Below are positions 3,876 to 50,343 of a stretch of DNA of 64,000 nucleotides, piece after piece; the first letter of the stretch is position 1; each line of letters starts with the position of its first letter. The notes under the pieces are model-generated. The model did no database searches, was not told the origin of the DNA, and saw nothing but the letters and a program-made list of their open reading frames with translations. Source of the DNA: Neophaeotheca triangularis (taxonomy: Eukaryota); contig BAAIJX010000036.1 of NCBI GenBank assembly GCA_054600435.1, positions 124,001-188,000 on the forward strand, given 5' to 3'. Position numbers and translations under genes: made by a program.

Positions 3876-5967
3876 ATGCCTCCTCGTGTTATTGTCGTTG
3901 GCGCTGGTCGTGAGTAGCCATACCCTACCCCAACCACCACCACCGCCCTCATCCCTCATTGGCTAACTCGAGACTCCAGTTTCCGGTCTGAGCGCTGCTC
4001 ACACCATCTACCTTGCCGGTGGTAATGTCGTCCTCCTCGACAAGAACAGTACGTAGACTCTGTCATCAAGCCGACATGACTACCGAAGCTGACCATCTCC
4101 CACAGACTTCATGGGAGGCAACTCCACCAAGGCCACTTCGGGTATCAACGGTGCCCTGACCCGCACACAAACCGACGAGAAGATTGCCGACAGCGTCAAG
4201 CAATTCTACGATGACACCCTCAAGTCTGCGAGAGAAAAGGCCAGGCCGGACCTCATCAAGGTCTTGACCTACAAGTCCGCCGCTGCCGTCGAGTGGCTGC
4301 AAGATGTCTTCAACCTTGATCTGACCCTCGTTTCGCGGCTGGGAGGCCACTCCTTCCCGAGAACACACCGCGGCCACGACGCAAAGTTCCCCGGCATGGC
4401 CATCACCTACGCACTCATGCAGCGATTTGAAGAGCTCGCCGAGAAGGAGCCGGAGAGGGTGTCTCTGGTCAAGAAGGCCAAGGTCACCAAGATCAACCGT
4501 GAAGGCAACAAGGTCACTGGTTGCACATACACATTCAACGGCGAGGACACAGTAGCCGAGGGTCCGGTCATTTTGGCCACTGGTGGTTACGCCGCCGACT
4601 TCTCAGAGACCTCCCTCCTCAAGAAATGGAGGCCTGACACTTTCGACCTGGCCACAACCAACGGCGCACACGCCACTGGTGACGGACACAAGATGTTGAT
4701 GGAGATTGGTGCGCAGGGAATTGACATGGAGAGTGTGCAAGTCCACCCGACTGGTCTTGTGGACCCCAAGGACCCCGGTGCGAAGACCAAGTTCTTGGCT
4801 GCTGAAGGTGAGATTACAACATACTACTATACTCATCAAGCTTAACAACAGCCTGCTAACATGACAACAGCCCTCCGTGGTGAGGGTGGTCTTCTCCTCA
4901 ACTCCAAGGGGCAGCGTTTCACCGACGAGCTCGAGCACCGCGACTATGTTTCCGGCAAGCTGTGGGAAGAAAAGAAGAAGAACCTATGGCCTATTCGCCT
5001 CGTCCTCAACAGCAAAGCATCCAATGTCCTCGACTTCCACACTCGTCATTACTCTGGCCGTGGCCTGATGAAGAAGATGAGCGGTAAGGAGCTGGTCGCG
5101 GACATTGGTTGCTCAGAGGCGGACCTCAAAAAGACCTTCTCCGACTACAACAAATACGCCAGTGGCGAGGAGAAGGATCCCCACGGCAAGAAGTACTACC
5201 ACAACGCCCCTTTCGACCTCGACGACACCTTCCACGTCGCCGTCATGGAGCCTGTACTCCACTTCACCATGGGTGGTATCGAAATCAACGACCAAGCTCA
5301 ATGCCTCAACGCTGAGGGCCAGCCCTTCGACGGTCTGTTCTGCTGTGGTGAATTGGCTGGAGGTGTTCACGGCGCCAACCGTCTTGGTGGCTCCTCCCTC
5401 CTCGGCTGCGTCGTCTACGGCCGTGTAGCAGGCGAGAGCGCCAGCAAGTTCCTCTTCCAGCGCGTGCTGAACGAGGGTACCAGCACAGCCGCCCAGCGTG
5501 CCGGCCAAATCAGCCTTCACATTGACCCCAACCAACCCGGCAAAGTCTCGATCGAATGGGCTAACGGCACCGGCGCCGCAGCAAACGACCAGACCACTCC
5601 GGCGCAGCAAGGTCAGCAATCCGCCGGCCCCGTCATGACGCAATCCGGCGACTCCAACGACCCAGCCAAGGTCAGCAAGCCCAACTCGATCGAAGCCTTC
5701 AAGGTGCCCGACGAGGAGTACTCGCTGGAAGAAGTAGCCAAGCACAACAAGAAAGAAGACCTCTGGATCGCCGTCAAGGGCGTCGTCATGAACGTCACGG
5801 ACTGGGTCGACGAACACCCCGGTGGGCCACAAGCCCTCTTCAGCCACATGGGCAAGGACGCTAGCGAGGAATTTGAAATGTTGCACGATGACGAGGTTAT
5901 CCCCAAGTACGCTGCCGGTATTGTCATTGGCAAGGTCAAGGGGCAGGAGGTTACGCTTGAGTATTAG
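3876..5967 (+). CDS. osm1: FAD-dependent soluble fumarate reductase (Osm1/Frd1 family) with a C-terminal cytochrome b5 domain
   Basis: VIVVGAGL..SGLSAA FAD-binding start, GGNSTKATSGING, HFTMGG and GGVHGANRLGGSSL motifs, and a C-terminal HPGG heme-binding b5 motif. GT-AG introns at 3910-3979, 4049-4105 and 4808-4870. Confidence 0.93.
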
Positions 5968-17690: not shown

Positions 17691-17944
17691 GGCGAAGTGT
17701 GTTTTTACTGAACGTCGCGAAGGAGTATGTCGTGTACAAGAACCTGCACTCGCTCAATCCCAAGCCTGGGACGGTACCCAGGTAGGAAGCTGGAATCAAG
17801 AAAGTCGAATGAAGCTCTGAAAGTCGCGCCGGAGATTGACGGCTTTAAACAGGCTTGGCAATGTGACCGACTTCACGTTGCCGTCTTGAGCTAAGGTGTG
17901 TCTATCTCTAGCTGCACCATCTTCACCTGTTGATGTACAATGTA

Positions 17945-20215
17945 ATGGCCGCGTCTTCGGCTACCAAGGCCATCAATACCCAGGAGATCACCGATAAAGC
18001 TCGACGAGACTTGCTGCAGTTGCTTGAGGCAGTATGTAAGGCTATCGATCGTGGGCATCGTTCGAAGCCATGCTGATCAGATCCAGGTACGAGGCAAGAA
18101 GAACCTGGTCATCGAAAAGTCGCTGGCTGGTACTATAGGCCTTTTTGTCAAGTTCAGCACGCTTCAAGAATATGGAGTCGATAAGGTCTTCTTTCTTGAA
18201 AACCACAATGTGGATTCCACGCAACGAAACGTTGTGTTTCTGGTCCGAGGGGAGAGCTCTAAGAAGGTCCGGACGGTAGCTGGTGAGTAGACGAATTCAT
18301 GTTTTCTCGAGTTCTGGATCAGGAGACACCTATCCCGTGGCAGTTTGCAGGACTGTAAACTTGCCTGTTGCACAACCGCCAGTCAATCCACGGCGGCTCA
18401 GGGCCACGCCACTGTACCTGAGCCCGCTGAGCTCCCCTTCATCGTAATGATAGCTGGCTTGGGATGATGCTTTGTCGCGCGCATTTGCTAACTGAAACAG
18501 AGCAGATAAAACTTGTCCGCACAGAAAGCAGAATCGACCATGACTTCACAATCATCTGGGTCCCAAGAAGAACGCTGGTCAGCAATGCAATTCTCGAAGA
18601 GCATGGCGTGCTTGGAGAAGCCAATATCACCGAACTACCTCTCAACTTCATCCCGTTGGAACCGGATATCTTGTCACTAGAGCTGGATGATGCTTTTGGC
18701 GATATTTCTCTTCGAAAAGATCCGACCTCAGTTTTCGCCTCGGCAAAAGCACTTATGCTGTTGCAGAAGCAATACGGGCTCTTTCCTAAAATCCTCGGCA
18801 AAGGCGACAATGCGAAACGTCTGGCAGACATGTTACAGCACATGCGCAATGAAGAAGATGTCAATGCCTCTGCGGACGCCAGCAATACCTATTTGACTTC
18901 ATTTGGCCTCACGCCTAGCTCGCTAGTGGAGAATTTGGTCATTGTAGATCGGGAGGTTGATTTCTTGACCCCGCTATCTACTCAGCTCACGTATGAAGGC
19001 CTTCTCGACGAAAACTTTGGCATCGCCAATAATCAGGTGGAGGTCGACAACTCTGTACTTGGCGGCGCGGCTGCCCAGGGTCAGCAACAACAGAGCGGTG
19101 CTGCGCCTGCTTCCGCCGGCACTACCAAGCGCAAGATCCAAGTTGACAGTAGCGACAAGCTCTATCCCACTTTGAGAGACGCCAACTTCGCTACCATCGG
19201 ACCCACATTGAACAACACTGCACGTCGCCTTCAATCGGACCAGCAGAACATTCACAAGCAAGACCAGTCCATCACAGACCTCAAGAGCTTCGTGCAAAAG
19301 CTCCCATCATACCAGGCCGAGCAAGCAAGTTTGAAAGTCCACACATCTCTTGCTGAAGAAGTCCTCAAGATCACCAAGTCTGAAGCATTTGGCCGTATGC
19401 TCGAAGTACAGCAAAACCTTCTCCTCGGCAGCGATCCGAGCACCATACACGAGAATATTGAAGAATTGATCCTGCGTGATGCACCAATCAACACTGTACT
19501 TCGACTCCTGTGCTTGGAAAGCGTGTTAAGCAACGGCATCCGCAGCCGCGATCTGGAAGCTTTCAAGCGCCATATCCTGCACGCTTATGGGTTTCAACAT
19601 CTCCTGACCCTCTCTAACCTTGAGACAATGGGACTCTTGACGCAGCGCGAGAGTCACAGAGGCTATCTCAACCCCATTGCCGGCACGGTTGGTCAAACTT
19701 CTACGGATTGGAATGCCGTGCGCAAGGGCCTCAAGCTCTGGGTGGAAGAAGTGCAGGAGACAGATCCCGACGACATCGCATATGTCTTCTCCGGCTATGC
19801 ACCTTTGAGTGTGAGGTTGGTGCAAGCGGTGCTTCAGAAGAGCCACTTGCTATCTCTCACTGCCACGAGCGGGAAGACTGCACCCAACACTTCTGGGTCC
19901 GGAGAAGGGTTCAAGGGATTTGAAGATATGCTCTCACGGATTCGTGGTGCCACCGTGGACGTCACGCAGAAGGGGCATGACGCGGAAGTAAGCAATGCGA
20001 GGAAGACGTTGAGGAATAGCAAAGAGGGTCCCAAGACAACGATCGTCTTCTTCTTGGGCGGTGTGACTTACGCTGAGATTGCGGCTTTGAGGTTCTTGAG
20101 CGGCCAGTTGGAGGAGAGTAGTGGGAGGAAGATTGTCGTTGCTACCACTGGAATTATCAAGGGTGACAAGGTTGTTGGTGCTGCTTTGGAGAAGGGAAGT
20201 TTTGGAGAAGAATAG
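17945..20215 (+). CDS. VPS33: Sec1/Munc18-family vacuolar sorting protein Vps33
   Basis: RRDLLQLLEAVRGKKNLV, WVPRRTLVS, DFLTPLSTQLTYEGLLDE, YVFSGYAPLSVRLVQ and FFLGGVTYAEIAALRF. Introns at 18032-18086 and 18283-18500. Confidence 0.93.
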
Positions 20216-20547
20216 CTCATCAACCGTCAGTATCATTGACCCTCCAAGCGAATCTCAAACGAGCCCTTTCGGCTGGTTCTCGAGTTATATGAATTTTATC
20301 AACACTGTACGGCGCTTTCGGCCCCCAAATGGTAAGGCATTTCGGCAAATGCTTGGCCGTAGCTTCTTTCCAGGTACCGACCGACGTCGCTACCAACTCC
20401 AACTTGCTAATCTCAATACAGCAGGTCGATTGTGATAACATGAGGAGCGCGCAAGCTAGGGTCAATATTATTCTCAGGTAGTATATTCCCTTTGCATTAG
20501 TTTTCTTCCGTCTCTTCCACTTTCCTCGTCATCTCAATCCGGCCGCC

Positions 20548-22305
20548 ATGGAGAAAACGCTCCCCACGACAGCGCCAACAGCGCGAGCGACGCCAGCAGC
20601 TTCAAACCGGCGGCGCGCTCTCGCCTTCTCCTTTTTGTCGTTTGCATTCGCACTCTATGTATTTGCCCCGTCAATCGCACCGTGGCTCGAATCCTCCGGC
20701 TATGTTGGTCCCAAGCACTCGGTATCGCAAGCGCCGCAATGCTCGCAGCCGCCGGCGCGTCCGTCATGGAGCTCGAGCTCTCAAAGCATGGAAGAGGCAT
20801 ACGAGCACCTCTCCAGCTCAGCCTTCCGTAACACTTCAATCTCCAGGCTGTCGAATGCAGTCAGGATCCCGACTCAGAGCTATGACGACTTGGGCGCCAT
20901 TGGTGAAGACAAGAGATGGGACGTCATGTACGAGTTCGCAGAATACCTTGAGACGGCCTTTCCCGCCGTACACGAGCACTTCAAGGTAGAGAAGGTCAAT
21001 ACGCATGGTCTGGTTTACACCTGGCAAGGGAGCGACTCTTCTCTTCGGCCAAACCTGCTCATGGCCCATCAGGATGTAGTCCCCGTCCCAAGTTCAACAG
21101 TAGATGCTTGGACCCATCCACCATTTGACGGTGTATACGACGGCAAGTTCATTTGGGGCCGGGGAGCAAGCGATTGCAAAAACCAGCTGATCGCCATCTT
21201 GTCTACAATGACCGCTCTTCTGGAAGGGGGTTTTGAGCCTAGGCGTACGATTTTGCTCAGCTTTGGCTTCGATGAGGAGATCAGCGGTCGTCAAGGCGCG
21301 GGACACCTGGCGCCGTTCCTGCTGAAACGCTACGGTAAAGACGGCATAGCAGCCATAGTAGACGAGGGTGCAACCTTTGAGGATGCCTGGGGGACCACAT
21401 TCGCCAAACCCGGGGTGGCGGAGAAGGGGTACACCGACGTCTCAATCATCGTGCGAATGCCAGGCGGTCACAGCAGTATCCCTAGCGACCATACTAGCAT
21501 CGGAGTCACAAGTGAGATCATAACCGCCATCGAGAGTCAATCATACTCTACCTTCCTCGACAACCAAAACCCCTACCTGGGCCAACTCCATTGCGGCGCT
21601 GAACACTCCCCCAACTTCCCCACCAAACTCAAAGCCCTCCTCAAAGCCCGCTCTCTCAACCCCGGCGGTAGCAGTAGCAGCATTTGCGCACGCAAACCCG
21701 ACCTCCTAGCCCTAGCAGCCGCAGAACAAGGCCCAGCAACGAAATACCTGATGCAAACCTCGCAAGCCGTGGACGTCATCACCGGCGGAGTCAAAGTCAA
21801 CGCCCTCCCCGAGCGAACAGAAGTCATCGTCAACCACCGCATCAACATTGGCGAAACACCGCAAACAGTCTGGGACCGACTTAGCAATGTGGTCGAGCCT
21901 ATAGCCAAGAAACATAACCTCTCTCTACACGCGTTCCCCGAGAAGGCCAAGGAGTCTCCTCAATCCGTACTCCTCACAGCCACTTCACCACCTCTCGACG
22001 TGGCCCCCGTCACCCCGACGGGCGAAGGATCGGTGTACTCCCTCTTATCCCGCGTAACGCGATCGCTATACGGCGAGGCCATTGTCGTGGCGCCGGGCAT
22101 CATGACCGGCAACACGGATACCCGGTACTACTGGGACCTGACGAGGAATATTTTCCGTTTCGGCCCCGGTTGGGATCCCGAAGGCGACGAGGGTTTGGGG
22201 AATATCCATACAGTGGACGAGAGGGTGAGTGTAATCGGGCATGTTAATGGGGTCAAGTGGTTTTGGGGGTGGGTTTTGAGTATGGATCAGGCTGAGGAGG
22301 CTTAG
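20548..22305 (+). CDS. CPS1: Gly-X carboxypeptidase S (peptidase M20), type II membrane-anchored
   Basis: N-terminal TM segment, LLMAHQDVVP, WGRGASDCK, GFDEE, GGHSS, TGNTDTRYY and IHTVDE motifs. Confidence 0.9.
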   Translation: MEKTLPTTAPTARATPAASNRRRALAFSFLSFAFALYVFAPSIAPWLESSGYVGPKHSVSQAPQCSQPPARPSWSSSSQSMEEAYEHLSSSAFRNTSISRLSNAVRIPTQSYDDLGAIGEDKRWDVMYEFAEYLETAFPAVHEHFKVEKVNTHGLVYTWQGSDSSLRPNLLMAHQDVVPVPSSTVDAWTHPPFDGVYDGKFIWGRGASDCKNQLIAILSTMTALLEGGFEPRRTILLSFGFDEEISGRQGAGHLAPFLLKRYGKDGIAAIVDEGATFEDAWGTTFAKPGVAEKGYTDVSIIVRMPGGHSSIPSDHTSIGVTSEIITAIESQSYSTFLDNQNPYLGQLHCGAEHSPNFPTKLKALLKARSLNPGGSSSSICARKPDLLALAAAEQGPATKYLMQTSQAVDVITGGVKVNALPERTEVIVNHRINIGETPQTVWDRLSNVVEPIAKKHNLSLHAFPEKAKESPQSVLLTATSPPLDVAPVTPTGEGSVYSLLSRVTRSLYGEAIVVAPGIMTGNTDTRYYWDLTRNIFRFGPGWDPEGDEGLGNIHTVDERVSVIGHVNGVKWFWGWVLSMDQAEEA

Positions 22306-24093: not shown

Positions 24094-24108
24094 CGCTCTA
24101 CCACCGCA

Positions 24109-26211
24109 ATGGCTACTGCTATGACCGTACCGCCACTGGCACCTAGACCTTCACCAAGACCTATCGCCGCCTGGGAACCTCCTAAGCACGTGATGCAGCA
24201 CAGCAAAGAAACCCGACCGGCCTTGAAGCAACTCCAAAGCACCACGCCTGGAGCTACCGCCAGAGGTCGTCGGGAGAGACCGTGCGATGGTTGCCGAAAG
24301 CGGAAAAGCAAGTGTGTCCTCCAGGACTCTGGCCGTTGCGTACTCTGCGAATTCCACAAGCAAGACTGCACTTTTGTTGAGAACGCTCAGCCCAGGAAAC
24401 GGAAGCTCGACGACAACTCGAAACCGGGCAGTCCACCAAAGCGAAGTCCAGCCGTCAGCCAATCTTCGGCGCCGAATACGATTCCGACATCTCAGCCAGG
24501 CCCGCAGCAGGCTCCACCGGAACAACCTGCGATTCCTCTCGCCCCCGCTAAAGTCTTATCCGTGGTCGACGAGAGCTTGAGCTTGCAGCGCCATCGACAT
24601 TGCAGATATCTCGGTCAGACAACTGCTTTGGACGCCAATCTACTCGGACTTGGCGACTTGAACGACAAGAACGAAACTGCGAGCCAAGTTGGAACGTTAC
24701 GGCAGGTCAACGATCTGGAGTACTTCAGCACCCATGACGACGCCGATGTGCCCATTCCGGACGATGAGGCGAGAGCCCTAGCAGACATTGAGCAAACCGT
24801 CGGTCCCTACGGTCCTGCTCTCATCGAAATCTACTTTCAAAACGTTCATCCAAGCTTTCCAGTCATCCAGAAGCGTGCTTTTCTCGATCGGCATAACCAT
24901 GGCGATAAGCAATTCAACCCACCTTTACTGGCCGCCATGTACCTCCTTGCTCTTACCTGGTGGTCGCACGATCCCGAGCTAGCACCACAGCCAAAGCCGG
25001 ACATGGGCAGGCTTGAGTACATTGCCATTTCCAGCTTGACTGTTGCAATGCAACGACCAAAAATGTCTGCGGTACAAGCAGGCTTGCTACTTCTTCAACG
25101 AGCCAAGTCAAGCACATGGACTCTTACCGTTCAACTAGTCGCTCTAGGTCAAGACATCGGCCTCCACCTCGACTGTTCAGCTTGGTCTATCCCGCTCTGG
25201 GAGCGACGCCTCCGCAAACGCCTCGCTTGGGCGCTCTTTATGCAGGACAAATGGAGCGCTCTCATGTACGGTCGACCCAGCCACATCAACGCCGCCGATT
25301 GGGACGTCCCCATGCCTACACTTGAAGACTACGACGATAGCTTCTCGTCTCACCCCGGAACCGCCGAGGACGAAGACGAGCGTGCAGCTAAAGGCCGCTC
25401 CATCTTCAACCAGATGATCATACTGACCAACATCATGGCCGAAGTCAGCGAAGTCTTTTACAGCCAAACCGCCAAAGCCGAATTCGCCCGAGCCGGCCGC
25501 TTCGCTACACAGCTTGTTCTCAGCCGCGCAAAAGGCGTGCAAATAAAGCTCAAAGACTGGTTCGCCAGCTTGCCGCCAGAATGCAAAATGGACGCTTACG
25601 GTACCGGCCAGCTGTCTTCAACCGGTTACCTGCATCTGGGCTATTTCGCCACGGAGATCAGCATCCACAGACGCATAGTGCAGAGTCTCGACCCCGCTAC
25701 TAACGACCCATACATGTTGTACATTTGCCGGTCAGCTGCGAAGACAAGGCTGATAAGTGCCATGGACTTTGTCAACCGGCTGAAACCTGAGCATCTCGAT
25801 GCCTTTTGGTACTTTCCCTCAGCCACCAACTTCGCCCTAATCGGCACTTTCGGCGCTCTCCTCCAAGCGACCTCGCCTGGGATGGAAGAGGCGGCGTTTT
25901 ATGGTGCCAGGTTGGCTGAGTTCCAGTGGACGCTAGGGGTGAGCGCGGAAAAGGCGGTCTGGATCGAAAAGGCAGCGTGTCTCTTGCAAGCCAACACAGA
26001 GATGTTGAAGAATCTGCCGGAGAAGCCTGTCACTACTGGGTCCCCGCCGAGGCCGATCGCCGCTGCTCCCGCTGCAAGTGGCGGGTGGAAGAATATGAGG
26101 CCAGAGGATGGATTGGGGGACAGCGATTACGATGATGATGAGGAGGACGAGGATGATTCTATGGATTTGGATGGTGAGGATTGGGATGCTGCTGGATCGA
26201 GACAATTTTAG
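24109..26211 (+). CDS. tamA: Zn(II)2Cys6 transcription factor, TamA/Dal81-like nitrogen co-activator
   Basis: RERPCDGCRKRKSKC...CVLCEFHKQDCTF cluster, Fungal_trans domain, and Dal81/TamA-type segments RLRKRLAWALFMQDKW, TGYLHLGYFATEISIHRRI and RSAAKTRLISAMDFVNRLKPEHL. Confidence 0.85.
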   Translation: MATAMTVPPLAPRPSPRPIAAWEPPKHVMQHSKETRPALKQLQSTTPGATARGRRERPCDGCRKRKSKCVLQDSGRCVLCEFHKQDCTFVENAQPRKRKLDDNSKPGSPPKRSPAVSQSSAPNTIPTSQPGPQQAPPEQPAIPLAPAKVLSVVDESLSLQRHRHCRYLGQTTALDANLLGLGDLNDKNETASQVGTLRQVNDLEYFSTHDDADVPIPDDEARALADIEQTVGPYGPALIEIYFQNVHPSFPVIQKRAFLDRHNHGDKQFNPPLLAAMYLLALTWWSHDPELAPQPKPDMGRLEYIAISSLTVAMQRPKMSAVQAGLLLLQRAKSSTWTLTVQLVALGQDIGLHLDCSAWSIPLWERRLRKRLAWALFMQDKWSALMYGRPSHINAADWDVPMPTLEDYDDSFSSHPGTAEDEDERAAKGRSIFNQMIILTNIMAEVSEVFYSQTAKAEFARAGRFATQLVLSRAKGVQIKLKDWFASLPPECKMDAYGTGQLSSTGYLHLGYFATEISIHRRIVQSLDPATNDPYMLYICRSAAKTRLISAMDFVNRLKPEHLDAFWYFPSATNFALIGTFGALLQATSPGMEEAAFYGARLAEFQWTLGVSAEKAVWIEKAACLLQANTEMLKNLPEKPVTTGSPPRPIAAAPAASGGWKNMRPEDGLGDSDYDDDEEDEDDSMDLDGEDWDAAGSRQF

Positions 26212-29282: not shown

Positions 29283-30882
29283 GATGCGTTTGGTTCAATA
29301 GCTAGAGTGTGAGGGTGGCAAAGGCTGATGTCTCAGTTGCGGGGCGGGTGAAGGCGGTGGTGGTGTTGGTGGTGGTTGTAGATTATTGTTGTCGATGGTC
29401 GGTCGCCTGACGAGGAGGCTCTCACGGGAATTTCTGAGGGGTTCCACTGCCACGGGTCGGTAGGATGAATACCTTATTACCTCATTGGACAAAGCTGGAT
29501 GCAAGCTCAATACGCCATTATTGACCCGGCGTGACCCAACCCAGTACGAGAGGTCGCGCGGGGCGGAGGCGTTACTGCCATTGATTATTATATTGTAACA
29601 TTACTCTTAACCTGCCTTAACCCCCACAAGTTCTGGCGGGGTCCAAAAGGCCTGGCCTCGAAGGCGAGAGCAAAGCTGGAAGTGTATAATTAACTAGGTA
29701 CTGTTAGGTATACGGTGTGTACATGTGGATTAATAAAGAAGGCGGGTGTTGTTTCAGCCGCGGTCCGTGAAATGATTAATCAATTCAAGCATAACTAAAA
29801 GTTTTGCATGGCTTCTAGGTTCCTTTTTAATCAATGTACAATGATCACAACGAGCACGTGAATGAACAAGTCAATAAGGGCCCCCCTTTTCCATGTGACA
29901 GAGCATTCACAAAAAATGCCTACAGTACTACCTACCTTTAGGTACCTTTTACTTCGAAGGTCTCCCTGCTGTATCAAGGTAGTAGTACCTAGTATTAAGA
30001 ATAATAAGAGGTCTTGCTCTCTCCTGTCGTCCGATCGGAGACAGCCGTGAACGTGCGTGTCAATTCATGAGGTAGTCAAGGTAGTTAACTAGTTACTACT
30101 ACTACTAGTCGTGTCACTCACTACTCGTAAGTTGTGTGCCCTCGCCGCTCCACCGTCTAGGACATCGGTAACAATTACTACTACCGTGCAATAATAATAT
30201 ACTAGCAGTCTACAGTCTACCTACAATAATAATAATAATGTTACTGTTGTTGGTCCTAATAGTGGTGCCCGGCAGAACTGAGAGTGTCACTGCTTCTGAT
30301 CGACGCGATCCCCACCAGCGAGCTGTGCCAATCACCCCAGTTATAACTAGTAGTACTACCTTAGTACTAAGTACATGTCTACTACTACACAACGGCTTTG
30401 GCTTTGGCTTTGGCTTTACCTTTGACCTGCTTTGGCCTGCTTTGGCTTGCGCTGGCTTGCTTTCTTCCAACCAAACTCCCTCGCCTCCCTCCGCCCGCCC
30501 GTCGCTTCAACTTTCCTCCACCGCAGCCTACAGCACAGCCTAACGTTATATCTATAAGGTGGTAGTAGTAGTAGCAACTCGCAAGGTAGCCAGCCCTACA
30601 AGTACCGCTCCAACCAAGGCATGACACTCGACTCGCGCCGCCGATAGCCACTCCAAACCGGGCCTATCGCAGCCTCCAGGGCTACCACCCAGCATTCTGC
30701 CCTGTCTCTCTAGTCCGCGGAACTCCCCGAAGAGCAAATGTGGCCAGCGATACAGCTCATAAAATCACTCCAACTATCATCATCTGGAACGACGTTTGTT
30801 GCCCGGGACCTCGCTCAAAACCCTCCTCTTTTCGTCCCTTCCTCCGCCAAGGGCTAGCTCATTATCGTTATTGTCAGACGTC

Positions 30883-33654
30883 ATGGATCCTACCACGGCG
30901 CCGGCCCCGGCTGCCCACGCCAAGCAAATGCAGTACGTCTTTGTGGATGAGTACAACCGACACAAACGACTCAAGGTGATGCGCGCCTGCGACGGATGTC
31001 GGAAGCGCAAAATACGCTGTGACGGCGCCTTGCAGAATGGACCGTGGCCTTGCGGTGCCTGTGTGCGCCTGAAGTTGAAATGCGTGCCCCCTACCTTGGA
31101 CCAGGACGAAGATCCGCAAGCAGTCAATGCCCCGCAGGACGGGCAGTTTACCTTTCAAAATACCTTCAGTACGGTGCCTCCTGGCCAAAACACGAGAACC
31201 ACGAGGCCCCAAGTCGAAACTCAGCCGATGAACCATACGTGGTCCATCTCATCAAGCCAACATGGATCGGACGGTGCAATGCTGCCGCAGCATCAGCAGT
31301 CCGACGTTGGAAATTACCATCAGCAAGCTTATACCCAAGCCGGTGCCCCCAGCAACATGGATAGCTATCTCGGCTCTGCAGTCAGTCCGGCCACGTTTGA
31401 GCAGTCTCAACGACCGCACACGTTTGCGCGAAGCGATACACAAGTCTCTAGCTCTTCTAGTGGAGATGCACAGGAGGTCGACGCTACAGTGCAGAGCCTC
31501 AGCGAAGTCATGGGTGACCTTAAGATTGGCCACACCGCTGTTGCTCCGTACATAGCTAACCACAGGAAGAACTCCGTTCCTACCCCGGTAGTAGCCGAGG
31601 CCGAAATCGCCTTGCCACCTTCGGTCTACACCGATTCAACAATCAGGATACCGCCGGAGATGATGCCCTCGGAAGAAAAGGCTCTGGAGTACTTTCATTA
31701 CTTCTTCGAGTTTGTACACCCTTACATGCCAGTCCTCAGCCGGGCGGATTTTTTCCATCAATGGCAGTTCAACCGGAGCAATATACCACCGTTGCTCCTC
31801 GAAGCAGTGTTCGCATGTACTTCCCGTTACGTCGACGATTCATACACCACGCGGAGATGGCTTGCTCTTGCTGCAAAGCACGAAGAGAGCTTCAAAGACG
31901 TGCCTCGGATCAGCACCATCCAGGCCATGATTTTACTCATCAAAGCTAGAGAATTCGCACCTGTGCAAGGCTATTTCTACCGATCCTGGATGGCTGTCAA
32001 GTACATGGTGACAATGGCTTTTGATCTTGGGTTGAACGAGCATCACGATGAGCATACCGGAGACCAAGGGCACTGTGCTCTTACTCAAGCCGACTGCATG
32101 GCCCGCATAAAGGTCTGGCAAAACCTCTTCGCCCTCGAAATTTTGGTGGGCGCACCGCAAGGGAGGAATGACTTTGCAATCGAGCTTGAAACGGTCGATT
32201 TCAGAATTCCCTCGCCTTCTCCTAGCTTCGACCAATTTGACTACAAGGCCGGAAGGAAATATGCGTACTTTATTCAGGCTGTAAGGAACATCGGGAAGAC
32301 GAACAATCTCTGGCACAAAATGCGTCGCAAACAGCATGACTGGGCCCTGGACCCAAGATTTGTACAGCACAACGATGATCTCCAGGTTTGGCTACGCGAG
32401 CTGCCCCCTGACTTGCAGCTCCACTTTCCCGAAGATGAGAGCGCGCCTTATCTTGGTGGTGACCACTTTGTTGCGTTCCTGCACGAATACCATCATCTGG
32501 TGGTCATCATGCATCACCGACCGCAGCTGCAGGCTTTGTTGGAAAGAAAGGATCCGGCATTCAAACATCACCTTCAAATGTGCACCGAGTTTGCATCACT
32601 CATGTGCCGCGTTCAGGAGGCGTTGGTACGAGATTTTGGTTTGCATGGCTTACTTTTCATGCAGAGGGGAATCAACTTCACCATCTACTGTGTGCTGACT
32701 TGCACCATGCTGCATCTGGTGAGTGACAGCTTTGAAACTCGGAGTTGCATTTTTGCTAACCCCCTCCAGGCGGCCATCACCTCGCCCGACCCTTCAATGA
32801 ACGGCCGAGCGCGCATGTACTTCAGCCGTCATATGCGCATTCTAGAACACTGCCTTGTTCTGGCAAGTCCAGAAATGCAGGTGCAGATCGAGGCATTGCG
32901 GGAGGCGTTCAGTGTCGATACCAGCAAGCCATTCCAACTTAAGCCAACTCTTGGCCTGCGGAGCCCGGCACTGGAGAAAAACGCAACACCACCAAGCGCA
33001 GGAATGCAGCCTAACCCCAGTATCTCAGCACCGCTCCAGACTCAACCTCAATGGGCTCATCTGCAGCAGGGAGCAACCTCCTCAAGGACTCTTAGCCCCG
33101 CTTCAGAGTACACCCAAGCGTATGAGAACATGCCAAGTCAAGCGCCTCTGCAACATGACAACTCCACATTCAGCGTGCCGCCAAATACCACTTACCCAAC
33201 GCAGAACATCCAACAAATCTCCTCCTCGCAGCCTTACCCTATGCAGCCAGCTCTGAGCCCCGAGCAACAACAGCAGCAAACCCCCGTCTGGGACCCGTCG
33301 AGCATCTTCAACTCCTGGAACACAGCTTTCGGCGGCACCTCTCAACTTCCGCAAACTCAAACGGGCCTTCAAGACGGCCAAATGCCCCCCAATCCAGCTC
33401 CCGTGATCCCGCAAACCCAGTCCCCTCCTAGTGCAGCCCGTATGCCAGGAACACAACACCAATCCATACCCGCAAGCGGCTCGTCGAGAGCCGTAATGCC
33501 GAATGCGAACCCCATGCCGCTCGTGACGCCGGTTATGTGGCAGGATGCTTTTACTAATGCGTATGTGTCTGGTCATGGGCAGAAGAGATTTAGAGAAGAG
33601 GATTTGGGTGTTGGCTTTCCGGGGGACTCTTATGGGTCTAAGAGGAGGGGATGA
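30883..33654 (+). CDS. Zn(II)2Cys6 transcription factor with Fungal_trans domain
   Basis: FVDEYNRHKRLKVMRACDGCRKRKIRC...CGACVRLKLKC, YFFEFVHPYMPVL and a Q/P-rich C-terminus. Intron 32719-32769. ATG at 30883. Confidence 0.9.
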   Translation: MDPTTAPAPAAHAKQMQYVFVDEYNRHKRLKVMRACDGCRKRKIRCDGALQNGPWPCGACVRLKLKCVPPTLDQDEDPQAVNAPQDGQFTFQNTFSTVPPGQNTRTTRPQVETQPMNHTWSISSSQHGSDGAMLPQHQQSDVGNYHQQAYTQAGAPSNMDSYLGSAVSPATFEQSQRPHTFARSDTQVSSSSSGDAQEVDATVQSLSEVMGDLKIGHTAVAPYIANHRKNSVPTPVVAEAEIALPPSVYTDSTIRIPPEMMPSEEKALEYFHYFFEFVHPYMPVLSRADFFHQWQFNRSNIPPLLLEAVFACTSRYVDDSYTTRRWLALAAKHEESFKDVPRISTIQAMILLIKAREFAPVQGYFYRSWMAVKYMVTMAFDLGLNEHHDEHTGDQGHCALTQADCMARIKVWQNLFALEILVGAPQGRNDFAIELETVDFRIPSPSPSFDQFDYKAGRKYAYFIQAVRNIGKTNNLWHKMRRKQHDWALDPRFVQHNDDLQVWLRELPPDLQLHFPEDESAPYLGGDHFVAFLHEYHHLVVIMHHRPQLQALLERKDPAFKHHLQMCTEFASLMCRVQEALVRDFGLHGLLFMQRGINFTIYCVLTCTMLHLVSDSFETRSCIFANPLQAAITSPDPSMNGRARMYFSRHMRILEHCLVLASPEMQVQIEALREAFSVDTSKPFQLKPTLGLRSPALEKNATPPSAGMQPNPSISAPLQTQPQWAHLQQGATSSRTLSPASEYTQAYENMPSQAPLQHDNSTFSVPPNTTYPTQNIQQISSSQPYPMQPALSPEQQQQQTPVWDPSSIFNSWNTAFGGTSQLPQTQTGLQDGQMPPNPAPVIPQTQSPPSAARMPGTQHQSIPASGSSRAVMPNANPMPLVTPVMWQDAFTNAYVSGHGQKRFREEDLGVGFPGDSYGSKRRG

Positions 33655-34867
33655 AAGCGTTGAGATGAAATGATGATGACGCAATTCAGTGCTTTTGGGG
33701 GGTGGTTCTACGTGAACCGAACGAGTATGAGCGGCTCTCAGTTGATCTGGACACTGTGCTTCGTCATCGACGCGGTCGCTCAAAAGCTTTGGGATGCCAT
33801 CCTCCACTGCGGCAGGCTTCCAAAGCCGTCGAACTTCGGCAAAGCGATCCATGATACTCTACGCAAACCATTACGGAAATGCTGCAAGTGTGTGGGCATT
33901 CAGCCTTCCGGGTCTAGACAAGAACTTTGGAAAACAGGAGTGTCCTCCGAGCAGCACAATCCTCCTCGAGGCAGCCCCCTAGAACAAATGGACGTCCACT
34001 CTCTTTTGACTCGACGAAATTCAGCTTGGTTGCTCTGTGCTTACCCGAGCAACAACTGGTTGTCGGCTTCCAACGAAATGCGTGATCTTGGCTGGGCAAC
34101 CCCTCCAAAAACTACAAGAATACACGGCGTTTGAAGATTGACATGATGCAGCAATCACCTGCCATATCAGACAGCCGAGATCGGCGTCACCAGGTACGCC
34201 AAGGCGCCACACTACCCGCCGAGGGGAAGCTTACAGAGCTTGTCGGACTCATGCCCTCTGAATACCAAGCTTGTCTCAACAACAACGACTAGATTCTTCG
34301 CTTTGATAGCAGGACGTGTCGTATGGAGTGCTGGACTGTGTGCCTAGCTTAACAGCGGACGATTTGGCCCTGCTACCGGGCCCAGACTGGATGATACTGT
34401 TCAAGCCGGATACGGCAACTTCTGACGCTTTTCCGGATCATTTCCGTTTTTCTGATCGACCAGCACACTTCCACATTCAGCTATCTGTATGCATTGGAGG
34501 AGTGGACCAAGTGGGGTTTTTCGAGGGCACGCGGGGTGGCGGCAATAGCACCCCGCAGAAACTCCATGGTTATGAGGGTGTATGTGGAGAGGACGATGCT
34601 CAAGACGGCAACTCTGACCTAGGATCTCTGTATGCAGTCGCATGATACGGTGAATGTCTTACGAAGACGGAGATTCTCGCGGTAGGAATTCTCCAAGGGT
34701 ATAAAGCGTTACGTCAATCTCTTCCTTCTACTATTCCTTTCCCCCAGTCTCTTATCGAATTCACTCGTGAACTTTCCTGCCATTTAACTTGATCACCCCC
34801 GAGCAGCGAAAGTCTTCACCCAACCCTACCCACCTCACTTTACTCCAAACCCATCCAATCCACCAGC

Positions 34868-37071
34868 ATGCGCTTCCTCCACCACATCCGCCCCAAGCCC
34901 GGAAACAACACCACCGGCCCCGGCGACTCCGACTCTAACTCCTCCCACCGCGTCAACGACAAAGACCCTGTCTCAGCCCTCCACCACGAAACCGACTCAA
35001 CGCACAATGGCCAGCCAACCAAATTCAAAGTCTCTAAAGCCGGGGACGGCGACGTGGCAATGGGACTTTTCGACTCGCCAGACGAATTGCAAGCGCCTGT
35101 TTCCGAGGAAGAGGAGGCGAAGGTGGTGCGCAAGATTGATTATATGATCTTGCCATATTTGGCTGTTTGCTACGCGTTTTTCTACAGTGAGTACCTGAGT
35201 TTTGGGTAGAGGGGTCGAGCGTTTTTCTTTACTATTTCTTTTCCTTCTTCTTTGGGTGGTGGTGGAAGTTTGCTGACGGCTGGTGTTTGCAGTTGATAAG
35301 ACTACGCTTTCGTATGCGGCAATTTTTGGTATTAGGGAGGATTTGGAACTCGTGGGCACTCAATACAGCTGGTGAGAGACACTTCACAAACACCCTGTTC
35401 CCTTTCTCTCTCGCAACAAGCTCTCCTCGGCATACTTTGTCGATTTTGCGCTGTTTCTTCAGACTCCACTCAAGCCGCATACCTCACAACAACCCAGACT
35501 CGATATCCTTGGACGGACATTGCTCACACCATGGCAGGCTCTCGAGCATCTTCTACTTCGGCTTTCTCGCATGGGCGTTTCCAACAAACTATTTGTTACA
35601 GCGCCTTCCCGTAGGCAGATACCTAGGCTTCAACATCTTCCTCTGGGGCGCCTTCCTCATGATCCAAGCCGCCGCGACTAATTTCGCCGGACTGGCCGCC
35701 ATGAGAGCTCTCGGCGGGGCTGCTGAAGCGTGCTCCGACCCGGCTTTCATGTTGATCACTAGCATGTGGTACACCAGACGTCAACAGCCCATTCGCATGG
35801 GGCTTTGGTACACGGCTAATGGTCTTGGCATCGCTCTCGGCGGGCTTTTGGGTTTTGGTATCGGGCATTTGAAGGGGGCTTTGCCTTCGTGGTGCGTACG
35901 GACATGGCGTTGTCGAAAAGTAGCCGGAAAAATATCGTTTTGTTGCTGACAACACTCCAGGAAATACGAGTTCCTGGTCATCGGAGCGCTCTGTTCGGCC
36001 TGGGGAGTTGTCATGTACATATTCTTGCCTGACAGGTAAGATTTCCCGCGTAGTAAGTGGCTTAGTCCATGACTGACAAGTTCACAGCCCCGTCACAGCC
36101 AAAGGCCTCAACAACAGAGAGAAGCGTATTGCCATTGAGAGGCTCCGTGAGAATCAGACTGGCATTGAGAATAAGCACTTTAAACTCTACCAGGCTAAGG
36201 AGGCTTTTCTGGATATCAAGCTTTACCTCTTCTTCCTCCTGGGAGTGGTCGGGAATATCCCTAATGGATAAGTCAACACCGCAACACCCCTTACATGTAT
36301 GCAATCATACTGATCAACCTCTACCGGTATTAGTAACTTCGGAACCATTATCATCAAAGGCTTCGGATTCTCAACCCTGGTAACAACGCTAATGCAAATC
36401 CCTTACGGCGTGCTCATTATCCTGTCGATCCTGTCCTGCGTGTACCTCAACGACTACTACTCGAGGAAAGAGGCGCAGACGAGGTGCTACTTCATCCTGC
36501 TCTACCTCGTCCCCAATATCATCGGCTCGTTCCTGCTCCGCTTCCTAGCCTACGACAACAAGGGGGGCCGACTGGGGGCCTATTACCTTACAGGCCCATA
36601 CAACGCAGCTTTCGTCATGATCCTGTCCATGACTACGGCTAATACGGCAGGGCATACCAAAAAGGTCATCACGAATGGTGAGTTTTCCCAGCCCTAACGC
36701 CCCTCACCTACTAATACCTACGCAGCCTGCTTATTCCTCGGTTATGCCGCGGGTAATATTGCGGGGCCCTTCTTCTACAAAGAATCCAGTGCGCCCGAGT
36801 ATCCTCTAGGAATTTGGAGCATGATTGTGAGCCATTTAATCGAAGTGGTCGTAATTCTCATCCTGCGGTTCCATCTGGCCCGGGAGAACAAGAGGCGAGA
36901 CCGTGTGCAGAGTATGCAAGAAGGGGGTCTCGAAGGCCGTGATCTAGACGCTACTGCTTTTAGCGATATGACGGTAAGTTTCGGATTGTGCAATTCTGGT
37001 GTGATGATGGGCTGGTCGCTGACTTTTGGCTGCAGGATCGGGAGAATTTGAATTTTAGGTACATCTATTAG
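34868..37071 (+). CDS. MFS allantoate/dipeptide permease (Dal5/ACS family), eight exons
   Basis: VVRKIDYMILPYLAVCY, DKTTLSYAAIFG, SMWYTRRQQPIR, ANTAGHTKK and ENKRRD...DRENLNFRYIY*. Introns at 35187-35292, 35372-35537, 35892-35960, 36036-36087, 36268-36324 (AT-AC), 36678-36725 and 36974-37035. Confidence 0.92.
36268..36324 (+). other. Non-canonical AT-AC spliceosomal intron (57 nt)
   Basis: AATGG|ATAAGT...ACTGAT...CTCTAC|CGGTATT. Removal restores GNIPNGGISNFGTIIIKGFGF, while retention gives an immediate TAA. Confidence 0.85.
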
Positions 37072-44468: not shown

Positions 44469-45829
<1,361 letters not shown>

Positions 45830-46600: not shown

Positions 46601-47358
46601 TGGAGCGTTGGCCAGTAGCTACTTCTCAATTATTTGATGGTGTCCCTGGCAGTCATTTAGACATTGGAGGGGACGGCGCATGCAACCCCAGGTTCGAGCA
46701 GTCGCCATCACGCTGCTCAAAGGGTTCATTGCCGTAGAGTAGATGGTATCGTATTACCCCCGGGGCTAGACTTTGGCTCGAGCGATAGGAAATTCAGGCA
46801 GGCTGTCTTGACTCGCACAGCAATTGAAGTATCTCAATCAGTATGCTGCCATCGGTATGGCTCTTGTGGGCTATGTCCCTGGTAGATTTTGTGGCTGCGA
46901 CTTTCGCGTCGCTTTTGACTCCAATCTCAGTCATTCGCCAATCGCGCCCTCTGGAGACCCATGGCGGTGAATCGCAAGCAGCTACATTATACCAGGGACG
47001 AATAAAGCTTGAGGTGAGGTTTGTGTTCAATGGCGGTGCACGGACCCCGATGCGCTTATCGATTAAGCTTGCTGTCGCTCCGGACTTTACCCGGCGCTAG
47101 CATTCGCGAAAAGTTACCAGCAAGCTTCCGTTTCCCAAAAGTTCACCTCTCCACCTACCACCTCTTCCACGCGTCTTTCTCTTCTTCTACACTCTCTCCA
47201 TACCGCTGGAGAGCTCACTAACCGAAGCAGATACCAAACACAACTCATCAGTGGTGAGTATCTCAACCATGGAGGGCTCACAAAGGAGGCTAACCGACAT
47301 GGAGAAGGACCAGAGAAGGCGCGAACGTGAATCTGCGCCACGTACACCTGCAGACGGA

Positions 47359-50343
47359 ATGGAGTACGACGACTTCGGCAACCTCATTGGAGGCAGCGAT
47401 GGAGACGCGCTTGGGGTTGGAGAGCGCAACACGCACGACGCCGGCTCTATCCACGACGACGCGAGCGACGACGAGGGAGATGGAGCACCGGGAGTCACCA
47501 ACCAGATGGAGCTGATGCACGTGGATGAGGAAGCTGCCTCCAATGCCGTCGTTCTGCACGAAGACAAGCAGTACTACCCAACCGCCTCCCAAGTCTACGG
47601 GCCAGACGTCGAGACTCTCGTGCAAGAGGAGGACACACAGACGCTTGCGCAGCCAATTGTCGCGCCAGTGGAGAAGGAGACATTCACTGTCGAGGAGGAG
47701 AGCTTGCCCAATGTCACCTTCGATCGCAAATTTATGGCAGACCTCATGAGCTTCCCGGATCAAGTTCGCAACGTTGCGCTGTGCGGGCACCTTCACCATG
47801 GCAAGACTAGCCTGATGGACACGTTTGTCGAACAGACACACGACGTGAAATCATTCCTCGACGGCAAGACCGGCAAGGCAAGAGAGGAGCAAATGAGATA
47901 CACCGATACCCACATTCTGGAGCGTCAAAGGAAGATCTCTGTCAAGTCCTCGCCAATGAGCCTAGTTATGCCTGACATTCGCGGCAAGAGCAAGCTTCTA
48001 AACATCATTGACACCCCGGGGCACGTTGATTTCTCCGACGAGATCGCGGCAAGCTTGCGCTTGGTGGATGGCGTGGTGCTGGTTGTGGATGTGATCGAAG
48101 GCGTGCAGAAGCAGACTGAGATGATCATCAAGCACTGCGTTCTCAATGACCTTCCAATGGTGCTGGTCTTGAACAAGATCGACAGACTCATCATCGAACT
48201 CCACGTTGAGCCATCGGACGCATACATGAACATCAACAACACCATTGAGTCGGTCAATGAGTGCATCGAGAACGTGCTGCCAGGGCAAAAGCCGAAGACT
48301 CACTTCAACCCGGGACGCAACAACGTGATCTTTGCGTCCGCCAGCATGGGCTGGAGCTTCACCCTGCACTCGTTTGCCCAAGCATACAAGGATTGGTGGG
48401 CCTCGGACCATGACTTCGACGTCGAGCAGTTCGCCTTGAGGATGTGGGGTGACATCTATCACGACAAGAAGACTGGCAAGCTGAACCGCATTACCAACAC
48501 GAAGGATTTTAAGGGAGACCGAAGTTTCGTCCACTTCGTTCTAAAGCCCATCTACAAGCTTCACGCACACACTATTGCCAAGGCTCCCAAGGATCTCAAG
48601 GTCACGCTGGAGAAGATGAACATCTATCTCACTCGCACTCAACTCAAGCTGAACGCAAAGGAGCTCCTGCGTGTCGTTTGTCAGAAGTACTTTGGTCATG
48701 CAACCGGCTTCGTTGAATCGGCGTTCAAACATCTACCTACTCCAGCTGAGGGTGCAAAGCAAAAGGTCGCAAACTACTACACTGGTCCCAAGGATACCGC
48801 CACAGCCAAATCCATGCTTGAATGCAACGCCGATGGCCCTCTCGTTGTGCAAGTCACCAAGCTCTTCCCCACGACCGATGCTGAAGCGTTCAATTGCTTC
48901 GGTCGTGTGCTCAGCGGTACGGTGAAGCCGAACCAGCCCGTCCACATCCTAGGCGAGGAGTACACCAGCGACGACCCCGAGGACATGGTTGCGACTACTC
49001 TCGCTGGCGTCAGCATCGCAGAGTCTCGCTATAATGTTCCCGTCGGCGCGATCCCCGCTGGCAATCTCTGTCTGCTCCACGGCATCGACAACTCCATCAT
49101 CAAATCGGCGGCGATCCTCTCCCCAGAGCTGCCTGATAATGATGAGGGTTTCGTTTTCACGCCAATCACGCATTTCTACGAGCCTGTCCTCAAGATCGCG
49201 ATCGAGCCTGTCAACCCCAGCGAGTTGCCCAAAATGCTCGAGGGTCTTCGTAGCATCAACAAGACATACCCGATGCTCGAGTCTCGCGTGGAAGAGAGCG
49301 GTGAGCACATCATGCTTGGCTCTGGCGAGCTATATCTGGACTGCGTCATGCACGACCTGCGCCGTCTGTATGGCCGCATGGACATCAAAGTCTCGGACCC
49401 AGTGACCCGCTTCGCTGAGACCGTCGATGCGGACTCGCGCATGAAGTGCTACTCAATCACACCAAACAAAAAAAACAGAATCACTCTCGTGGCTGGGCCA
49501 ATGGACGATGCAATTGCAGAGGACATCGAGACCGGCAAAGTCAACATCAAGGACCCTGTGCGTGTAGTAGGCAAGTTTTTCGAAGAGAAGCATGATTTCG
49601 ATCTACTCGCTTCCCGCAATATCTGGGCTTTCGGTCCGACCGACAAGAGCCCCAACATCCTCCAGAACGATACCCTTCCCAGTCAAATCGATGCGAAGAC
49701 GGCGCGCGCTGTCAAAGACTCGATGACCAGCGGTTTCAAGTGGGGTGTTCGTGAGGGTCCATTGTGCGAGGAGCCCATCCGCAACACTCTATTCAAGATC
49801 ACAGACCTCGAGCTCGACCAATCGCCCATTCACCGTGGCGCTGGCCAAATCATCCCGACAGCCCGTCGCGCAGTCTACAGCTCTTTCCTCATGGCGGAGC
49901 CGCGCTTGATGGAGCCTGTCTACAGCGCCAACGTGCTCTGTCACCAGGACGTCAAGGGCAAAGTCTACGAGTCCCTCAGCAGGCGTCGTGGACACGTTCT
50001 TGCCGACACCGCGGTCAAGGGAAGTCCTCTCCAGCGAGTCACCGGTCTCATCCCTGTCATCGACAGCTTCGGCTTTGAGGTCGATCTCAAGGTTACCTGC
50101 AAGGGCACCGCCTCTCTCTCGCTCGTCTTCGACCGCTGGAGCCAAGTCCCAGGCGACCCTCTCGACAAAACCGCTATCACTCGTCCCCTGGAGCCGGCCA
50201 ACGTCGCAGGCATGGCCAGAGACTTCGTCATGAAGACTCGCAAGCGCAAGGGTCTGAGCGACGACTTGCGCGTCACGCAGTTCCTCGAGCGCGACCTGGT
50301 CAAGGAATTGAGGGAAGGCGGTTTGCTCGAGGAAGACGAGTGA
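47359..50343 (+). CDS. SNU114: U5 snRNP EF-2-like GTPase Snu114 (EFTUD2)
   Basis: YDDFGNLIG acidic N-terminus, AVVLHEDKQYYPTA...VETLVQEED, GHLHHGKT, DTPGH, NKID and GPLCEEPIRN. The start is assigned to MEYDDF, with in-frame upstream ATGs at 47269 and 47299. Confidence 0.94.
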   Translation: MEYDDFGNLIGGSDGDALGVGERNTHDAGSIHDDASDDEGDGAPGVTNQMELMHVDEEAASNAVVLHEDKQYYPTASQVYGPDVETLVQEEDTQTLAQPIVAPVEKETFTVEEESLPNVTFDRKFMADLMSFPDQVRNVALCGHLHHGKTSLMDTFVEQTHDVKSFLDGKTGKAREEQMRYTDTHILERQRKISVKSSPMSLVMPDIRGKSKLLNIIDTPGHVDFSDEIAASLRLVDGVVLVVDVIEGVQKQTEMIIKHCVLNDLPMVLVLNKIDRLIIELHVEPSDAYMNINNTIESVNECIENVLPGQKPKTHFNPGRNNVIFASASMGWSFTLHSFAQAYKDWWASDHDFDVEQFALRMWGDIYHDKKTGKLNRITNTKDFKGDRSFVHFVLKPIYKLHAHTIAKAPKDLKVTLEKMNIYLTRTQLKLNAKELLRVVCQKYFGHATGFVESAFKHLPTPAEGAKQKVANYYTGPKDTATAKSMLECNADGPLVVQVTKLFPTTDAEAFNCFGRVLSGTVKPNQPVHILGEEYTSDDPEDMVATTLAGVSIAESRYNVPVGAIPAGNLCLLHGIDNSIIKSAAILSPELPDNDEGFVFTPITHFYEPVLKIAIEPVNPSELPKMLEGLRSINKTYPMLESRVEESGEHIMLGSGELYLDCVMHDLRRLYGRMDIKVSDPVTRFAETVDADSRMKCYSITPNKKNRITLVAGPMDDAIAEDIETGKVNIKDPVRVVGKFFEEKHDFDLLASRNIWAFGPTDKSPNILQNDTLPSQIDAKTARAVKDSMTSGFKWGVREGPLCEEPIRNTLFKITDLELDQSPIHRGAGQIIPTARRAVYSSFLMAEPRLMEPVYSANVLCHQDVKGKVYESLSRRRGHVLADTAVKGSPLQRVTGLIPVIDSFGFEVDLKVTCKGTASLSLVFDRWSQVPGDPLDKTAITRPLEPANVAGMARDFVMKTRKRKGLSDDLRVTQFLERDLVKELREGGLLEEDE

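Follow-up and report, generated by a model that had tools for sequence, protein, structure and literature searches.

A probable U2-type AT-AC intron in a Dal5-like permease gene of Neophaeotheca triangularis and its likely origin by a two-nucleotide slide

Neophaeotheca triangularis, a member of the Dothideomycetes (order Neophaeothecales), carries a Dal5-like (allantoate-permease family) transporter gene of the major facilitator superfamily (MFS) whose predicted fifth intron begins with AT and ends with AC. The gene lies on contig BAAIJX010000036.1, in the stretch of 64,000 nucleotides (nt) from position 124,001 to 188,000 that we analysed as a whole and call the window; all coordinates below are positions within it. 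Our analysis suggests that the segment 36268..36324 on the forward strand, 57 nt long and in phase 2, is probably a genuine spliceosomal AT-AC intron removed by the major (U2-type) spliceosome. Its most likely origin would be a slide by 2 nt of an ordinary GT-AG intron. What we infer are the excision as such, the spliceosome responsible and the sequence in which the mutations occurred.

The intron reads ATAAGT...CTGAT...CTCTAC, with AT at 36268-36269 and AC at 36323-36324, and its boundaries cannot be slid in either direction, G36267 differing from C36324 and A36268 from C36325. Exon 5 (36088..36267, forward strand) ends ...CCT AAT GG, that is, with two bases of the first Gly codon of an N-I-P-N-G motif conserved in the homologues, and exon 6 (36325..36677, forward strand) resumes with C GGT ATT AGT AAC TTC. 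If the intron were retained, the frame would run into an in-frame TAA at 36269..36271 and the protein would end after 336 residues; the 547-codon frame is therefore intact only with excision of 36268-36324. The predicted spliced product, GNIPNGGISNFGTIIIKGFGF, is collinear with the homologues and joins the exons as PNG/GISNFG (here and below a slash marks the splice junction). A search with exon 6 for longer proteins provided 120 listed homologues, mostly from Dothideomycetes (Recurvomyces, Septoria, Cercospora, Zymoseptoria, Friedmanniomyces), many of which are named MFS allantoate transporter. PNGGISNFG was exact in 104 of these 120, among them all 60 of those with at least 470 amino acids (aa); three differed from it by one residue, and 13 were without even a loose form of the motif, being N-terminally truncated or read through an intron at the site. 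These results bear out the initial annotation of this DNA, which had placed the intron at the same coordinates, with the same junction GG/ATAAGT, stop on retention and resumption at CTCTAC/C GGT ATT, and had matched the restored segment to the Dal5 family.

We then considered the other ways in which the two exons could be joined, by enumerating the in-frame, stop-free GT-AG, GC-AG, AT-AC, AT-AG and GT-AC pairs, taking donors from 36150-36299 and acceptors as far as 36499. The sole collinear pair among the 82 enumerated was AT36268-AC36324; no GT-AG or GC-AG pair among them was collinear, the canonical pairs all deleting dozens of conserved residues. In agreement with the earlier view that the nearby GT donors at 36245 and 36248 offer no solution, these two were usable only with far acceptors, at the cost of about 75 conserved residues. 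A nested, stwintron-type arrangement was rejected, as there is a single AG within the 57 nt, the one inside ATAAGT (the next AG ends at 36333), and this length leaves no room for two introns. The only predicted route to a collinear permease is thus AT-AC excision at exactly 36268-36324.

A real intron that starts with AT at 36268 and uses another 3' end, or the skipping of exon 5, has a small probability in our view. Weak sites often yield mixtures of products, and three such outcomes preserve the frame and meet no stop (for exon-5 skipping this was derived by hand): the use of AC at 36317-36318, giving an intron of 51 nt and inserting Ser-Thr; the use of AG36333, giving an intron of 66 nt and deleting Gly-Ile-Ser; and the joining of the donor at 36036 to AG36333, with the loss of about 62 residues, comprising exon 5 in full and the opening codons of exon 6. 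However, none of the three is collinear with the invariant PNGGISNFG. AC36318 would lie 5 nt after the branch A, whereas this distance is at least 11 nt in every intron of the gene with a located branch site; AG36333 would create an AT-AG intron, described by Sheth et al. as a mismatched terminal pair (PMC1557818); and exon-5 skipping would delete a conserved stretch that is presumably a membrane helix.

With the AT-AC intron excised, the gene model extends over 34868..37071 of the forward strand and comprises eight exons, with 547 codons plus the stop. Its 1644 coding bases hold no other stop or frameshift. The other six introns, of 48-166 nt, are GT-AG introns located on the forward strand at 35187..35292 (intron 1, 106 nt), 35372..35537 (intron 2, 166 nt), 35892..35960 (intron 3, 69 nt), 36036..36087 (intron 4, 52 nt), 36678..36725 (intron 6, 48 nt) and 36974..37035 (intron 7, 62 nt); their donors are GTGAGT, GTGAGA, GTGCGT, GTAAGA, GTGAGT and GTAAGT, and all 12 of their splice dinucleotides are canonical. 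All seven junctions of the model are collinear with the consensus of 29 homologues, exon 3 matches the Pfam family MFS_1 (E 1e-13), and, exon by exon, the protein is 73-89% identical to others bearing the name MFS allantoate transporter. The MFS fold, together with similarity over the whole length, places the protein by sequence in the Dal5/allantoate-permease family, its substrate being a prediction only. The start at 34868, the first ATG in the open frame, is uncertain. So is the N-terminus (window 34793-35010), the first ~60 residues being poorly conserved among the homologues, and an additional ATG at 35008 is out of frame with the model.

The permease gene appears to be under-annotated in public databases. 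The protein P0121 (189 aa; NCBI 'hypothetical protein MBLNU230_g4711t1 [Neophaeotheca triangularis]') is identical to residues 359-547 of our model; it begins with the first Met encoded in exon 6, corresponds to window 36399-37071 and uses introns 6 and 7, which it confirms. For the N-terminal half, no 100%-identical protein covering exon 3 was found in a search that took in proteins of 206 aa or more. What is public is a C-terminal fragment, left by a GT-AG predictor that, as it seems, truncated the gene: predictors restricted to GT-AG and GC-AG introns cannot bridge an AT-AC intron, and hence the public record is truncated to 189 residues. This is what the initial annotation had anticipated in stating that such predictors would mis-model the gene. 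Homology-guided models that permit AT-AC introns would recover the full transporter.

The signals of the AT-AC intron are U2-type and not U12-type. The 5' splice site, ATAAGT (36268..36273, forward strand), agrees with GTAAGT at +2 to +6; it is GTAAGT with A at +1, and five of its six bases are those of the donor at 36974. A branch-site motif of the fungal CTRAY type, CTGAT, is found at 36310..36314 of the same strand, with the branch A at 36313 followed by 11 nt to the 3' end. This spacing is common to four of the six sister introns (35372-35537, 35892-35960, 36036-36087 and 36678-36725), the branch site of 35372-35537 (CTCAC) having been assigned by eye after our script pattern had missed it. 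The 3' terminal AC (36323..36324, forward strand) is preceded by the pyrimidine-rich CAACCTCT. A U12-type intron was rejected as the 5' site is ATAAGTCA and not ATATCCTT, with agreement at one of the six positions of the U12 motif ATCCTT (+3 to +8), and no TCCTTAAC branch motif lies 10-20 nt from the 3' end; the best match to that motif, 5/8, stands 47 nt from it.

The initial annotation had likewise read the 5' site as GTAAGT with G1>A and pointed to the missing U12 consensus, and its CTGAT branch site is indeed present, although the distance of about 10 nt that it gave from the acceptor is, exactly, 11 nt after the branch A. It had also stated that Pezizomycotina lack the minor spliceosome, which fits a report that Ascomycota are without minor introns and without most or all of the minor small nuclear RNAs (snRNAs) (PMC10639083). 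A search of the 64-kb window against Rfam gave no matches at gathering scores, a result that is uninformative on the snRNA content of the whole genome.

Under the reading that we favor, U1 and U6 would recognize ATAAGT in the same manner as GTAAGT, and the branch A36313 in CTGAT would attack the 5' site. During the second step the A at +1 would pair with the terminal C, replacing the usual G-G contact, and GG would be joined to C GGT to restore Asn-Gly-Gly-Ile. The premise that A...C termini can replace G...G, also put forward in the initial annotation, agrees with the rescue of G1>A by a last-base G>C change described for yeast and human introns (PMC1557818). For yeast, AT-AC is reported to rank second to GT-AG in efficiency, and one AT-AC 'protointron' to have been validated (PMC6726248). 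A rate-limiting or regulatory role of the AT-AC intron would be pure conjecture.

The origin of the intron was approached through its relatives. Exon 6, aligned with 29 homologues, served to scan metagenome contigs, and the scan yielded 80 loci. Three of these are cut off before the site (L027, L059 and L079) and one, L072, is degenerate at it, leaving 76 that are informative. Of note, L072 (2086-3601) has an in-frame stop (…QTGV*NK…), is without the Pro-Asn-Gly-Gly codons and is probably a decayed copy. An AT-AC intron was found in none of the 76 informative metagenomic loci, nor did any of them have an intron at the exact position of the window's. Fifty loci were free of introns over the stretch that begins five codons upstream and includes the Ile codon of Asn-Gly-Gly-Ile, and part of these intron-free contigs could be assembled transcripts. 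GT-AG introns were found in the others: 11 loci have one that splits the second Gly codon in phase 1, GGN G/GT...AG/GN ATC (L001, L013, L014, L015, L018-L022, L054 and L074); two, the nearly identical pair L002 and L003, after the second Gly codon; four directly after Asn (L024, L038, L040 and L075); two inside the Asn codon (L066 and L068); three before the Asn codon (L041, L042 and L069); and four at 14-15 nt upstream of the Ile codon (L026, L055, L062 and L063). Counting that of the window, introns therefore occupy eight positions in 16 nt, namely 0, 2, 4 (window only), 6, 7, 9, 14 and 15 nt before the Ile codon, and at all of them except the window's they are GT-AG. The codons for Asn-Ile-Pro-Asn-Gly-Gly-Ile (window 36256-36330) look like a hot spot where introns have been gained or lost or have slid.

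The 11 loci of the common type have their intron 2 nt downstream of the window's at both ends. At the donor, AAT GGN G/GTNNGT in the relatives corresponds to AAT GG/ATAAGT in the window, which is two bases shorter. At the acceptor, a DNA alignment (A2) places ...CTCTAC CG GT ATT of the window without gaps against ...CCACAG GA ATC (L013) and ...TTCCAG GC ATC (L001), so that the CG at 36325..36326 of the forward strand aligns with the AG acceptor of the relatives and is now exonic, its C ending the Gly codon GGC and its G opening the Gly codon GGT. L002 and L003 have, at 2947-2999 and 1212-1264 respectively, the GT-AG intron GGC GGA/GTGCGG...CCTCAG/ATC, which is 4 nt downstream of the window's and 2 nt downstream of the common position; this pair represents a second apparent slide, in the clade nearest to the window. 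Neighboring introns are thus present at +2 nt (11 loci) and +4 nt (2 loci) with no indel in the protein, which stays N-G-G-I across the shifted positions. Since the window's intron is displaced upstream by 2 nt at either end relative to the common GT-AG intron, with no change in the protein, a 2-nt slide would be the most likely origin, ahead of a double point mutation in place.

Such a mutation in place had been the model of the initial annotation, which saw here a natural compensated double variant, derived from a GT-AG intron at this exact position by G1>A and a change of the last G to C. The U2-type AT-AC character that it implied stood up in our analysis; the substitution in place found no support among the relatives, and we regard it as unlikely. 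It requires just two point changes, the double mutant splices in yeast genetics (PMC1557818), and intron positions are so variable at this site (eight in 16 nt) that a lost GT-AG intron at the exact spot is conceivable. However, among the 76 informative loci 11 have an intron 2 nt downstream and not one has it here, the CG that follows the intron aligns with the AG of the relatives, and either single-mutant intermediate would splice poorly, whereas a slide needs one event.

The most economical course of the slide would be the following. The loss of two bases at the donor, from GGA G/GTAAGT to GGATAAGT, would have created ATAAGT two bases upstream, and the AC already in front of the old AG (ACAG) would have served as the new 3' end; it is because AC already lay just before the old AG that the 2-bp deletion would leave the mRNA unchanged. 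A later A>C change would have turned the old AG into CG, being synonymous (GGA to GGC) and removing a competing acceptor. The canonical sites have suffered two lesions, and these, at their 2-nt offset, are exactly those that create an in-frame AT-AC pair. As for the sequences required, CACAG is present in L013, L015 and L054, and GGA in L001. That a single 2-bp deletion at the donor shifted the intron upstream by 2 nt, turning its GT-AG ends into AT-AC while the mRNA stayed as it was, is a proposal that we make tentatively, and we would give it somewhat less than even confidence.

Several observations weigh against the interpretation presented so far. The intron sequences align unconvincingly and not beyond their ends (A2). 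GGA as the first Gly codon and ACAG at the 3' end do not occur together in any one relative, which makes the proposed ancestor hypothetical. The AT-AC state is shared with none of the informative loci, the best of which is 83-85% identical and has no AT-AC intron, and the nearest proteins outside the species are 83% (exon 6) and 89% (exon 3) identical. A quick maximum-likelihood tree was built from 65 of the 78 rows with at least 60% coverage, those below 66% identity being dropped; L074 had already fallen below the coverage cut, and L027 was wrongly labeled 'none', being truncated. In this tree the window groups with L006, L025, L004 and L005, which have no intron, and with L002 and L003 (+4 nt), and this group adjoins the clade with the GT-AG intron at +2 nt. 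The nearest loci (L006, L004, L005 and L025) are therefore intron-free at the site, and the support around the window, by the Shimodaira-Hasegawa-like approximate likelihood ratio test (SH-aLRT), is 84-90. Given intron-free nearest loci and this weak support, homology between the window's intron and the sister clade's GT-AG intron is plausible at most. Lastly, the nonsynonymous divergence (dN) on the terminal branch of the window was ~0.096, against ~0.057 for L006 and L004 (three-taxon arithmetic by hand); this longer branch may reflect a deeper split or some relaxed constraint.

The same features could be those of a recently inactivated allele, a young pseudogene in which the intron has been killed and the transcript is retained or mis-spliced, giving the 336-residue protein or none. 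Both canonical splice sites are destroyed relative to the 11 relatives, the excision is a prediction from the DNA, and the dN on the branch of the window is, as stated, somewhat above that of its neighbors. Dal5-family genes are numerous in these fungi, so that one copy may be dispensable. Nevertheless, we consider this explanation rather improbable, as the coding bases have acquired no further stop or frameshift and the 12 other splice dinucleotides are intact. Moreover, the lesions yield an in-frame AT-AC intron with a U2-type 5' site and the usual branch spacing, an outcome expected under selection and a coincidence under decay: AC precedes AG in just 3 of the 11 GT-AG relatives and GGA occurs in just one of them, and the A>C change by which the old AG was lost is silent under the new reading. 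We also estimated divergence by the Nei-Gojobori method over residues 215-547, obtaining a dN of 0.15-0.17 to the nearest relatives and a proportion of synonymous differences (pS) of ~0.8, which is saturated. A low dN with saturated synonymous sites argues that the lineage has been constrained by purifying selection for most of its history, the saturation limiting any per-branch dN/dS to a crude dN << dS.

To an assembly or sequencing error, with a true genome reading GG...GTAAGT and ...ACAG around an ordinary GT-AG intron, we assign only a minimal probability. Restoring two bases and changing one would give the architecture of the relatives, and bases 36266-36270 and 36323-36326 are known from the assembly, not from reads. 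However, two independent errors would be needed, a 2-base loss and a substitution, 57 nt apart and both on splice sites. P0121 agrees with the window over its 189 residues, though the intron is outside its span, and the neighboring genes keep frames of ~850-1080 codons. These uninterrupted frames, of 1012, 1080, 963 and 848 codons, indicate that indel errors are rare in the assembly, and that artefacts should have hit both splice sites of a single intron, by a 2-base loss at one and a substitution at the other, is very unlikely.

The four long frames belong to a DEAH-box helicase with HA2 and OB domains (14712-17750, reverse strand; 1012 codons), a Snu114/EFTUD2-type GTPase of the U5 small nuclear ribonucleoprotein (47101-50340, forward strand; a 1080-codon open frame), a Zn2Cys6 fungal transcription factor (30763-33651, forward strand; 963 codons) and a NAT10-like RNA cytidine acetyltransferase (61453-63999, reverse strand; 848 codons), the last of which runs off the end of the window. 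The Zn2Cys6 gene is directly upstream of the permease gene, and a second gene with a fungal-specific transcription factor domain is located further upstream (24094-26208, forward strand); either of them could be a regulator of the permease. The Snu114/EFTUD2-type and DEAH-box genes, two likely splicing-related genes, share the window with the permease, probably by coincidence. Also encoded on the forward strand are a Sec1 family protein (18431-20212), an M20 peptidase (20482-22302), a thiolase (44813-45826) and a FAD-binding/cytochrome b5 fusion that is fumarate-reductase-like (4846-5964).

U2-type AT-AC introns have been reported from filamentous fungi before, and the window adds no new splicing machinery. 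According to Sheth et al. (2006; PMC1557818), U2-type or 'type II' AT-AC introns have been shown in the human SCN4A and SCN5A genes and hypothesized for xylanase genes of filamentous fungi; they are put at thousandths of a percent of animal introns. In SCN4A and SCN5A, as in the window, the AT-AC ends go together with an otherwise U2-type 5' site (ATAAGT-like) and with no U12 branch motif. The window's intron differs in lying in a Dothideomycete permease gene, in its length of 57 nt and CTRAY branch, and in being common to no sampled relative. With U12-type AT-AC introns it shares the terminal dinucleotides only. AT-AC introns have been described as rarer in fungal annotations than in those of animals or plants (PMC7072748). 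AT-AC junctions from RNA sequencing are nonetheless reported within the same subphylum, Pezizomycotina, for Fusarium graminearum (PMC3577648) and Trichoderma longibrachiatum (69 of 14305 junctions; PMC4324775), again in fungi reported to lack the minor spliceosome; these have the same terminal dinucleotides and are supported by reads, whereas that of the window is predicted from the DNA.

Two further systems are close to the present one. The suppression of G1>A by a last-base G>C change in yeast (Parker & Siliciano 1993, cited in PMC1557818 and PMC6726248) involves the same A...C pair; it concerns a laboratory double mutant at fixed positions, whereas in the window a natural gene has both ends 2 nt away from the canonical sites of its relatives. 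The 1-nt shift reported in a DHA1 antiporter gene, which proceeds via an alternatively spliced stwintron (Fekete et al. 2017, PMC5587772), likewise affects a conserved peptide of a Pezizomycotina MFS transporter and leaves the protein unchanged. In contrast, the shift in the window is of 2 nt, no nested intron is possible, and the proposed route is via AT-AC ends. We found no description of a slide through AT-AC ends in fungi in the literature searched, subscription journals being outside its coverage. What is new here is that no informative relative has the AT-AC intron, while GT-AG introns are present at +2 and +4 nt.

Intron sliding is considered an infrequent event (PMC10639083), and how it comes about is debated. 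If the junction is real in complementary DNA, the permease locus of N. triangularis, together with the relatives whose introns lie at +2 and +4 nt, would be a concrete case of it. Furthermore, if the proposed 2-bp deletion is true, it would represent intron sliding in one step via non-canonical ends, with no stwintron and no frameshifted intermediate, and the stretch with eight intron positions would constitute a natural series for the study of splice-site migration.

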